Of a DNA stretch of 1,344 nucleotides, positions 1 to 1,344 are shown piece by piece. The stretch lies in the IMG/VR virus record IMGVR_UViG_2663762948_000003. One strand, written 5' to 3'. The stretch's first letter is position 1. Every line of letters starts with the position of its first letter. The translations under genes were made by a program, and so were the position numbers. A model generated the notes under the pieces. It saw only the letters and a list, made by a program, of their open reading frames with translations. It made no database searches and was not told the origin of the DNA. The stretch is from a virus. Lineage: Duplodnaviria; Heunggongvirae; Uroviricota; Caudoviricetes.

Positions 1-480
1 TTCTTCCTCCGTTGCAATTTCCAGATCTGCAGCATCCTGAAGCGGCGCAATATGCTCACTGGCTACCTGCATCAGGCTGTTTTTTGTTTCTTCTGCCTCC
101 CGGATCCGGAACAGTTTTTCTGCTTCCGTATCCTTCACCCAGGCTGTGCCGTTCCACTTCTGATATTCCCCTCCCGGCGACAACCAGGTAACATTTTCCG
201 GTAACGGACCGAGTTCAGAAATAAATAACGCGTCGCCGGAAGCCACGTCATAAACCGTTTTACCCCGATGGTCTTCAACGAGATGCCACGATGCCTCATC
301 ACTGTTGAAAACAGCCACGAAGTCTGCCGGAATATCTGGTGGTGCAATATCGGTACTGTTTGCTGGCAGACCTGTATGAGGCGGAATATATGCGTCACCT
401 TCACCAATAAATTCATTAGTTCCGGCCAGCAGATTATAAATTTTTATGGTCCGTGCTTGTTCACTCATTCTGAATGCCAT
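1..480 (-). CDS. tfa: Tail fibre assembly protein Tfa, N-terminal 160 codons; the 3' end lies beyond position 1
   Basis: My own translation of the minus strand from the ATG at 480..478 gives [160 protein letters not shown], open for all 160 codons to the window edge. This is near-identical to lambda Tfa as I recall it. It is absent from the supplied ORF track, apparently because it has no stop inside the window. A GAGG Shine-Dalgarno sits 8 nt upstream, and the start overlaps the upstream stop (TAATG). Confidence 0.88.
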
Positions 481-493
481 TATGCAAGCCTCA
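478..493 (-). promoter_or_regulatory. tfa ribosome-binding site and stop/start overlap (TAATG)
   Basis: The minus strand reads GTGAGGCTTGCATAATGGCA. GAGG is at 492..489 with an 8-nt spacer; the TAA stop of the upstream ORF (482..480) shares one base with the tfa ATG (480..478). Confidence 0.55.
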
Positions 494-1133
494 CAATATA
501 GTTAAATGCGATGTTTTTGACGGTGTTTTCCGCGTTACCCGCAGCGTTAACGGTGATGGTGTGTCCATGTGAGCCAATCGCAACGGAGTGCGTATGAGCA
601 CCAATATCCACCTCAACCGGATCGAAGGCTTCACCGGTCATGGTGTATTTGCCCTTAAGCACGGCAGAAACTGCCTGCATCTCTTCGACCTGAGCAATGG
701 CCAGCTCTTCGTCACGCATGTTCTGCATGATGATGCGACGGCGGCGGTAAACAGTTGTTGATTGAGTCTCTTTGGTCATTCGCCCTCCTGAGAGACGGGA
801 TTTACGTGCATCCAGTGCATCACGGATGACGGTGATCGCATCGGTGCTGTTAACAAGTTCATCAGCCAGTCCGGCATCAATGGCCTCCTGACCGCTGTAC
901 ACTGCAGCCTCGGTAGCCTTCCAGCGTTCGAATATCTTCACTCGATTAACACCAAGCGCTCGCTGATCAACCGCGCCACCTTCATCTGTGACACGCTGAA
1001 CATCGATGTTCGGGCGCTCTTTCAAAGCCCAGAATGCTTCAGTGATTAATATCGTCGCCTGCTCCTGTGTCATTCCTGGTCGACATATCCAGGCATCCAG
1101 AGCCTCACGAGCCTGTTCAGGAGTGATTTTCAT
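480..1133 (-). CDS. Mosaic ORF (217 aa): in-frame fusion of an unassigned N-terminus with fragments resembling protease C/scaffold Nu3, major capsid protein E and the side tail fibre tip; probably a deletion-scarred remnant, function unknown
   Basis: Intact ORF from ATG 1133..1131 to TAA 482..480 (track protein MKITPEQ...NYIVRLA). Residues 74-128 carry the S49-peptidase-like GLADELV motif followed by the Nu3-type start [10 protein letters not shown]. Residues 129-176 match a lambda E internal segment as recalled. Residues 177-217 carry HxH repeats and the ...[18 protein letters not shown] ending typical of lambda-type Stf. It is too short to hold a protease catalytic domain or a capsid fold. 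Confidence 0.6.
483..605 (-). other. Segment 4 of the mosaic ORF: side tail fibre (Stf) C-terminal tip-like domain
   Basis: [41 protein letters not shown] has HxH motifs and the characteristic C-terminal ending of lambda-type side tail fibres. It sits directly upstream of tfa, as stf does in lambda. Confidence 0.65.
606..749 (-). other. Segment 3 of the mosaic ORF: major capsid protein E internal fragment-like
   Basis: [48 protein letters not shown] matches an internal stretch of lambda gpE as recalled (...[54 protein letters not shown]...). Confidence 0.6.
750..914 (-). other. Segment 2 of the mosaic ORF: protease C C-terminal region / Nu3 N-terminus-like
   Basis: [55 protein letters not shown] corresponds to the end of the lambda C region that precedes and includes the internal Nu3 start. 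Recalled from memory; about one substitution (I for M) against my recollection. Confidence 0.65.
777..789 (-). promoter_or_regulatory. Shine-Dalgarno (AGGAGG) plus in-frame ATG: retained Nu3-type internal translation start inside the mosaic ORF
   Basis: The minus strand reads CAGGAGGGCGAATGACCAAAGAG. AGGAGG is at 789..784 and ATG at 779..777 (Met119 of the 217-aa ORF). In lambda, Nu3 is made from an internal in-frame start within C. Confidence 0.5.
915..1133 (-). other. Segment 1 of the mosaic ORF: unassigned 73-aa N-terminal region
   Basis: [73 protein letters not shown]. It does not match the lambda C N-terminus or any lambda protein I can recall. It is preceded by a G-rich stretch (GGGCGGGGCGG) that may act as a weak ribosome-binding site. 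Confidence 0.4.
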
Positions 1134-1344
1134 TGTTCAACCGCCCCGCCCGCTTCGTCTTACGATATTCATCATAAACTTTGGGATCATACTGAAGCTC
1201 CCCGCCAGATGCCTCCTGTAGACGCATCGCGCGACCTTCAGGAACCAGTATCCCCCAAGCAGCAACACTTGCCAGCCTCACTCCTGCGGCATTGGCAAGC
1301 TTTGTTTTGCTGCCAAAAAAAGTAATTGCGTCAACTTTAAGCAT
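1117..1344 (-). CDS. 3' portion of a hypothetical protein, probably phage-derived; the 5' end may lie beyond the window
   Basis: Track ORF ...[19 protein letters not shown] with stop TGA at 1119..1117. It overlaps the downstream start (1133) by 17 nt in a different frame, a typical coupled phage gene arrangement. The ATG at 1344..1342 is only the first Met inside the window; the frame may stay open upstream. I do not recognise it as the lambda B, A, W or Nu1 C-terminus. Confidence 0.4.

Follow-up and report, generated by a model that had tools for sequence, protein, structure and literature searches.

A probable fossil of the lambda Nu3 start, likely still competent, in a thrice-deleted remnant of the Qin prophage

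The closest described system for the locus analysed here is the C/Nu3 gene pair of phage lambda, in which the shorter protein begins inside the longer open reading frame (ORF) and in the same frame. A second group consists of the late-region scars of the Qin cryptic prophage, which adjoin tfaQ, pinQ, ydfK and ydfJ. In K-12, dicC shares an operon with ydfX and is transcribed from dicCp, a promoter analogous to lambda PR; this transcription is blocked by DicA (PMC10448788; PMC11430063). Further comparisons are provided by the E'-Stf' fusion of E. coli 21EVA, by the HL15-type A'-C'-Stf' pseudogene and by the fibres T4 gp37 and lambda Stf (2XGF). Here, we describe a stretch of 1,344 nt (the window), to which all positions refer and in which all coding sense lies on the (-) strand. 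Its features are as follows.

1117..1344, (-) strand: dicC-type Cro-like regulator gene, 75 aa, identified as an ORF with a Pfam P22_Cro match (E=4.9e-12, above the cut-off)
480..1133, (-) strand: chimeric 217-aa ORF of four pieces (YdfX/YdaT, C, E and Stf), with its stop TAA at 482..480
915..1133, (-) strand: YdaT/YdfX-family N-terminal 73 codons (ORF residues 1-73)
910..918, (-) strand: junction J1 between YdfX and C, crossover TACCGA at 915..910
750..914, (-) strand: fragment of the head protease gene C, codons 264-318 (ORF residues 74-128)
784..789, (-) strand: Shine-Dalgarno (SD) sequence AGGAGG of the Nu3-type internal start
777..779, (-) strand: in-frame ATG, the Nu3-type start, corresponding to lambda 5342 and C codon 309
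480..779, (-) strand: nested 99-aa ORF, including its stop
749..750, (-) strand: junction J2 between Nu3 codon 10 and E codon 106, with a 2-nt TT microhomology
606..749, (-) strand: fragment of the major capsid gene E, codons 106-153 (ORF residues 129-176)
604..606, (-) strand: junction J3 between E and Stf, crossover TAT
483..605, (-) strand: last 41 codons of a side tail fibre gene of gp37/Stf type (ORF residues 177-217)
478..482, (-) strand: TAATG overlap between the stop of the 217-aa and 99-aa ORFs and the start of tfaQ, with one shared base
1..480, (-) strand: first 160 codons of tfaQ, a tail fibre assembly protein gene (Pfam Caudo_TAP, E=7.5e-23), which continues past the window

The dicC counterparts in E. 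coli genomes are annotated as Cro/CI or DicC, and dicC is the first gene of a PR-like operon; since the window begins at the dicC ATG, the promoter lies outside it. The last 17 nt of dicC overlap the beginning of the 217-aa ORF, whose start at 1133 may be translationally coupled to dicC. The YdfX piece shares 99.8% DNA identity with 'toxin YdaT family protein' genes adjoining dicC, and a PHROG CII-like match covers residues 1-80 of the 217-aa ORF. At the other end, the gene at 480..1 is named tfaQ in the annotation of relatives, and the TAATG stop/start arrangement before it is common to all related scars.

Like lambda, the window nests the shorter frame inside the longer one, and its SD and ATG are lambda sequence, as are the 139 nt before and the 30 nt after them; the C fragment carries the Nu3 ribosome-binding site (RBS) and the first 10 Nu3 codons (C codons 309-318). 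Unlike lambda, however, the window keeps only codons 264-318 of C, which leaves the protease domain down to its last ~45 residues, its scaffold ends after 10 residues and is fused to unrelated fragments, and its outer start belongs to ydfX in an operon that is early (PR-like) rather than late. Two elements of this picture are already known, as the internal start is the lambda Nu3 start and the scar is one more chimeric ORF of prophage decay. In our judgement, the feature is very probably a fossil lambda Nu3 start in a thrice-deleted Qin remnant, that is, a neutral relic whose start is intact and probably competent.

To describe the nested start, the letters were read directly and the frame was checked. 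The AGGAGG at 789..784 and the in-frame ATG at 779..777 reported by the first-pass annotation of this DNA are both present, separated by the 4-nt spacer GCGA (783..780), and the ATG shares its frame with the 217-aa ORF at 1133..480. The nested ORF translates into Nu3 residues 1-10, E residues 106-153 and the last 41 residues of the fibre, in agreement with the 99-aa product that had been proposed (10 Nu3 residues, an E fragment and the Stf end). An AGGAGG-N3-9-ATG arrangement is expected by chance 0.14 times per window of such composition. Comparison of window 918..749 with lambda 5203-5372 gave 98.8% identity over 170 nt, and because the sole mismatches of this block are at 916 and 825, the RBS is identical to that of lambda. 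Judged by this identity, the presence of the RBS in the window is owed to inheritance from lambda-type sequence and not to chance.

The 217-aa ORF has 13 in-frame ATG/GTG/TTG codons, which were compared for their strength as starts. The duplex with the 16S 3' end reached -10.8 kcal/mol at the 779 start, -7.1 kcal/mol at the 1133 start and -5.9 kcal/mol or weaker at the others, and the best anti-SD pairing among the in-frame candidates thus bears out the earlier description of the site as strong. At the 779 start, unfolding of the region -18..+12 took 11-12 kcal/mol, which equals the cost at the 1133 start and exceeds that in the native lambda context (~11 kcal/mol) by ~1 kcal/mol, and the local RNA fold around the site was unremarkable (z = -0.16). 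In addition, a separate annotation pipeline picked exactly the 99-aa ORF, in preference to the 217-aa ORF, as a CDS (HAV9757764.1, in GCA_016666845.1). It is reasonable to regard the nested ORF as translatable in principle. Since the RBS is intact and its predicted accessibility is about that of lambda, ribosomes should use the 779 start whenever the RNA is made; the 1133 start should then function as well, and the strength of the SD makes it plausible that the 99-aa form outyields the 217-aa form.

The first-pass annotation had also stated that lambda itself starts Nu3 at this position. GenBank J02459 places the nu3 start at 5132, giving 201 aa, and the HK630 record uses the equivalent position 4942. 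Inside lambda C, 5342 is the only strong SD, while 5132 lacks an SD at normal spacing, and unfolding of its region, with 100-150-nt flanks, takes ~17.6 kcal/mol. The 5342 product was computed as 131 aa and 13,394 Da (13.39 kDa); this agrees with the mass of purified gpNu3, which we take to be ~13.4 kDa, with an N-terminus that was presumably obtained by protein sequencing. In the literature searched, we did not find an experimentally determined Nu3 N-terminus stated, and the works that touch it only cite it; the PDB holds no Nu3 chain. A search with lambda C for related loci returned only relatives of 98-100% identity, which were uninformative on conservation. Conservation was therefore judged on five diverged C-type genes from a translated search of phage genomes, with 31-52% protein identity to lambda C (Escherichia phage PhiR12_1, Vibrio phage HY01, Stenotrophomonas phage Bhz60, Klebsiella phage KPN U2874 and Salmonella phage BPS2). 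In all five, the strongest or joint-strongest internal in-frame SD-start aligns at lambda residue 309 (~318 in Casjensviridae), just past the protease domain, leaving 134-200 residues. The only strong SD, the 131-aa product and the boundary start kept in five diverged genes agree with the earlier statement and support lambda 5342 as a genuine Nu3-type start, against the 5132 of public records. Because the SD, mass and diverged-gene evidence favours 5342, the widely copied 201-aa nu3 annotation is probably wrong.

The codons of the SD region before the nested start, TCAGGAGGG, encode S-G-G, and the alternative AGCGGTGGC keeps S-G-G without an SD. A second AGGAGG-ATG (889..875), with an alternative-frame ORF that ends on the Nu3 ATG, was found across lambda-like genes; it was considered as a conserved leader and rejected, as it has no counterpart in the diverged homologs.

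To account for the RNA, the minus strand of the window was scanned for a sigma-70-like promoter and for an intrinsic terminator, and neither was detected. Because the minus strand of the window has no promoter, transcription must start upstream of dicC, and the dicC (PR-like) promoter is the only visible RNA source for the scar. The Qin gene rem has been reported to relieve DicA repression (PMC10448788; PMC11430063); it belongs to the interval that was deleted, and the 10.7-kb source locus lacks it. In the source lineage, the divergent repressor gene is intact (135 aa), the intergenic region contains a TTGACT-N17-ATAATG promoter-like element and TTAG...CTAA palindromes, and the immunity type of the repressor differs from that of K-12 DicA. 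Since the repressor gene and the promoter/operator-like region are kept and rem is absent, most cells probably keep the scar silent and transcribe it only when the immunity switch flips; because the immunity type differs from that of K-12, repression in the source strain is taken by analogy.

These results bear on the strongest rival to a competent start, namely that the site is silent, either with the RNA essentially never made or with ribosomes from the 1133 start occluding 779, so that no 99-aa species appears. The missing minus-strand promoter, the repression of the K-12 dicC operon by DicA and the loss of rem from the source locus all favour it. However, the identical lambda site at 5342 works inside the translated C gene, and for that reason elongating ribosomes do not prevent its use. 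Furthermore, dicBp is reported to be induced spontaneously in a subpopulation, for which dicC is needed (PMC10448788), and dicC is reported to be highly expressed after norfloxacin or cold shock (PMC11430063). We consider a silent site unlikely, although it is the rival that survives best, and we infer that the 779 site would be used in vivo when its operon is induced. K-12 translation data are uninformative for the window start, because K-12 stfQ (b1547) is, unlike the window, a plain 320-aa Stf C-terminal fragment without the C/Nu3 piece.

The junctions were mapped by base-level comparison with the parental sequences. The crossover of J1 falls inside a 9-nt near-repeat, GGCTACCGA, and that of J3 inside a 9-of-12 near-repeat; together, J1-J3 remove about 12.4 kb on the K-12 map, from ydfX to the Stf end. 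Two intermediates were found. In 21EVA, C and D are intact and E(1-153) is joined to the Stf end by the same junction as in the window (J3), whereas the window has the two further deletions J1 and J2 and its scar lies directly behind dicC. The metagenome contig ERZ773111 (L004), 99.7% identical, has J2 and J3 but not J1 and still carries Nu1, B and C. Because these intermediates exist, the deletions likely occurred in the order J3, J2, J1. According to this model, three successive illegitimate, microhomology-mediated deletions would have stripped a lambda-like prophage at the Qin site of almost its entire late region, the first joining E codon 153 to Stf, the second joining Nu3 codon 10 to E codon 106 and the third joining ydfX codon 73 to C codon 264. 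The frame would have been kept by chance through all three, and the surviving C piece would have brought the lambda Nu3 internal start (AGGAGG-N4-ATG) with it unchanged. The outcome would be two nested frames that share the native Stf stop, the longer (217 aa) opened by the ydfX start and the shorter (99 aa) by the Nu3 start. J1, J2 and J3 are all in frame, for which the chance is ~1 in 27, and this is a point against reading the scar as a neutral relic.

The Stf breakpoint shared by two scar types was also considered as a site of the Pin invertase (pix/gix-like). Inspection by eye revealed no gix/hix-like core near 606, and the candidate was rejected; the junctions at this breakpoint are accounted for by the microhomology GG[GA]TAT, and pinQ adjoins.

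The distribution of the scar was followed in complete E. coli genomes, GTDB species representatives, viral contigs and protein collections. No complete E. coli genome covered more than 68% of the window (coverage <=68%); the part with dicC and the start of a YdaT-family gene is common in E. coli, and the tfaQ side matches the Qin late-region scars. J1 was found in 0 of 5,426 complete E. coli genomes and in none of the GTDB species representatives; J2 was likewise found in 0 of the 5,426 genomes, in no GTDB species representative and in no viral contig. J3 was contiguous in one of the 5,426 (21EVA), J2 and J3 occurred together in a single metagenome contig (L004), and the three-junction mosaic occurred in one draft assembly, E. 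coli GCA_016666845.1. An exact look-up of the 217-aa product returned nothing on record, and no protein in a collection of 5.8 billion covers more than 66% of it. The 99-aa product is on record once, as the 'hypothetical protein' HAV9757764.1, in one single-member cluster.

The contig of GCA_016666845.1 (L008) differs from window 1344..78 by one mismatch in 1,267 nt, at 323 in tfaQ, and then ends; because only this single mismatch occurs across the shared stretch, the window is a very close relative of this assembly, and the known near-identical copies of the scar number two (the window and GCA_016666845.1). Its gene order is rspA/rspB-like genes, integrase, DUF1233, ydfE, ydfD, dicB, ydfA and an HTH_3 repressor, followed divergently by dicC (P22_Cro), the scar with the 99-aa CDS, and tfaQ. 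This confirms a Qin-type position, near rspAB, with a divergent dicA/dicC-type pair, dicB, and tfaQ at the far end, and the window shares with the Qin scars both the neighbourhood rspAB ... dicA/dicC ... tfaQ and the Stf end with its TAATG overlap with tfaQ. Taken together, these results demonstrate that the scar is a recent, lineage-specific erosion and not a conserved architecture.

Related scars upstream of tfaQ were compared for their reading frames. The HL15-type scar, present in 10 of 5,426 genomes and formed at a 6-nt microhomology, resembles the window in that its Nu3 RBS opens a frame running into the same 41 residues (nested product, 118 aa), and its Nu3-Stf junction falls on the same Stf nucleotide as J3. 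Six of nine independent junctions were in frame (J1, J2, J3, HL15 Nu3-Stf, CREC-532 A-Stf and 23AR1101 D-Stf) and three were out of frame (HL15 A-C, strain 2452 E-Stf and K-12 Nu1-Stf), giving a binomial p of ~0.04 in a set in which some loci were chosen by annotation names, a choice that favours in-frame fusions. This result is the sole indication of anything other than neutral decay. An excess of this kind would be expected if the Nu3 RBS and the open frame behind it had been selected as a translational on-ramp, with ribosomes from 779 re-initiating on tfaQ at the TAATG, Rho-dependent polarity averted and TfaQ placed under the DicA/DicC switch. The intact TAATG overlap is consistent with such a role, as are the in-frame state of every junction seen between the Nu3 RBS and tfaQ (J2, J3 and HL15 Nu3-Stf) and the intact tfaQ in all relatives examined. 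However, tfaQ has a native SD of its own (GAGG, 8 nt upstream), an intact tfaQ follows out-of-frame junctions or very short frames in K-12 and strain 2452, the in-frame excess is marginal given the name-picked loci, and the scar types are rare (10, 1 and 0 of 5,426 genomes). Because each scar type is so rare, recent neutral events fit better than a maintained function, and we regard selection of the RBS for tfaQ translation as very unlikely. The broader proposal, in which the scars upstream of tfaQ would have been filtered by selection for an efficiently initiated frame ending on TAATG, here driven by the fossil Nu3 RBS, that keeps TfaQ translated and in this lineage wires it to the DicA/DicC switch, is scarcely probable either. 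We know of no host function of TfaQ.

The pieces of the chimera were examined one by one. Pfam searches placed none of the C, E and fibre fragments above the gathering score. Peptidase_S49 reached 24.0 bits against a cut-off of 24.9 and matched the profile only from position 116 to 151 of 154; no complete S49 protease domain lies in frame upstream, as only C residues 264-318 are kept. The Nu3 scaffold domain (~130-200 residues) is absent as well, with 10 residues left before the E junction at 750/749. The E piece has exactly the sequence of residues 106-153 in the solved lambda gpE chains 7sj5 and 7vi9, and Phage_cap_E reached 19-21 bits against a cut-off of 22.9; with 48 of 341 residues kept, a complete HK97-fold capsid (~340 residues) is absent. 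In alignments, the fibre piece corresponds to the end of K-12 StfQ and, in the T4 gp37 fragment 2XGF, to residues 199-242; it matches PHROG tail fibre positions 752-794 of 794 and contains two HxH motifs; a complete Stf/gp37 fibre, with attachment region, shaft and C-terminal HxH series, is absent, as only the last 41 residues remain.

Over these 41 residues, the window and the end of gp37 are nearly identical, the two HxH motifs included, whereas the remaining ~200 C-terminal residues are missing from the window. We take the C-terminal region of 2XGF to be an interwoven trimeric needle, composed of a collar, ascending needle strands and a receptor-binding head, with the last 41 residues presumably running back along the needle to the collar. 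Because the collar, needle strands and head of this structure are missing, the fragment cannot form the trimeric needle. The first-pass annotation had spoken of a 'tail fibre tip'; the piece is indeed the C-terminal end of the fibre, but the term is imprecise, since in this structure the receptor-binding head falls in the deleted part and the piece is not the receptor-binding tip proper.

Structure prediction of the 99-aa product (the first-pass annotation had suggested one together with Tfa) yielded no confident fold. AlphaFold2 gave a mean pLDDT of 45 and a pTM of 0.28 with single-sequence input, which often produces poor models even for real proteins; the model consists of one long helix (residues 3-44), and its fibre part has no confident structure. 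The product is thus a patchwork: 10 residues of disordered scaffold come first, then a stretch of the long helix of the capsid protein plus a single segment after it, and finally the fibre end. Most likely, it would be rapidly degraded and functionless. The suggestion that the 99-aa ORF encodes a functional new small protein, such as a decoy or a partner that binds TfaQ through the fibre C-terminus, could draw on the strong RBS, on the retention of the last 41 fibre residues right upstream of tfaQ and on the binding of Tfa-family chaperones to the distal or C-terminal part of their fibre (PMC9608196), but we give it almost no credence, given that 41 residues are a small share of a C-terminal fibre region that exceeds 200 residues in K-12 StfQ and 2XGF, that the product has neither a confident fold nor a complete domain, and that it is present exactly in one assembly and has no diverged relatives of like architecture.

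As a probable neutral relic in a single lineage, made of sub-domain fragments with no confident fold in a normally repressed operon, the scar carries small biological weight. Placed in series, 21EVA, L004 and the window document cleanly, step by step, how microhomology-mediated deletion eroded the late region of a prophage. Should an unbiased census confirm the in-frame bias among the scars, a host-selected role of TfaQ would be indicated. For phage lambda, the comparison favours 5342 (131 aa) over 5132 (201 aa) for the annotation of nu3. Finally, the locus illustrates that a strong internal RBS can outlive the decay of its gene and mislead annotation, as a pipeline called the 99-aa patchwork a protein.

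Two start positions come into question for nu3. In the GenBank record of lambda (J02459), nu3 is entered as a 201-aa product starting at lambda 5132, and the HK630 gene is annotated from the equivalent position. The start at 5132 has no Shine-Dalgarno (SD) sequence. The SD-backed nu3 start is lambda 5342, which gives a product of 131 aa (13.39 kDa), and an SD-backed start at this position is kept across diverged homologs. Judged from the sequence, the 201-aa nu3 annotation looks like a propagated error.

A second SD and a short ORF that overlaps the Nu3 ATG are present in the window:

889..884, minus strand: second AGGAGG, upstream of TTG 880 and ATG 877, in a frame differing from that of Nu3
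within 776..889, minus strand: 33/34-aa ORF behind the second AGGAGG, with its TGA stop at 778..776

The stop of this ORF shares bases with the Nu3 ATG, as ATGA. The layout is inherited from lambda C, and its reading frame runs uninterrupted in 76 of 80 lambda-like C genes. The arrangement is probably due to chance, because no strong-SD equivalent of the alternative-frame ORF was found when sought in five diverged C homologs.

The E-Stf scar (the window and E. coli strain 21EVA) and the Nu3-Stf scar (HL15 type, 10 genomes) have Stf cut at the identical nucleotide, from which Stf continues as ATT GGT GCT CAT:

604..606 in the window; 6365..6372 in locus L001; about 5395 in locus L002: common Stf breakpoint

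The shared cut would be explained either by a microhomology hot spot at GG[GA]TAT or by descent of the HL15 type from a 21EVA-type scar; in the latter case, a second deletion in such a scar would have ended on the old junction. In the scars upstream of tfaQ (loci L001, L002, L003, L009, L011 and L012), the reading frame was kept in 6 of 9 independent deletion junctions (p about 0.04, with biased sampling).

The 217-aa chimeric ORF, whose start shares 17 nt with dicC, opens with the following fragment:

915..1133, minus strand: YdaT-family ('toxin YdaT') fragment, 73 residues, N-terminus of the ORF

Over 1,267 nt, the sole difference between the window and E. coli assembly GCA_016666845.1 is at window position 323 (minus strand), the second position of tfaQ codon 53, which is GAC (Asp) in the window and GGC (Gly) in the assembly. 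The immunity region lies outside the window:

8948..9663 of the GCA_016666845.1 contig: immunity region, upstream of window position 1344

Compared to K-12, the source lineage diverges strongly in the DicA-type repressor (42 of 136 positions identical, ungapped), the operator/promoter region and the DicC N-terminus; integrase and ydfE are both intact. By these sequence features, the source lineage carries a heteroimmune Qin variant.

Terminase A(1-350) is joined in frame to Stf(62-320) in CREC-532 (L011 825..2630) and in JX2. Annotation treats these A-Stf fusions as normal coding genes for a 'terminase' (WP_049254577.1, 601 aa), a further case of scar chimeras getting into protein databases.
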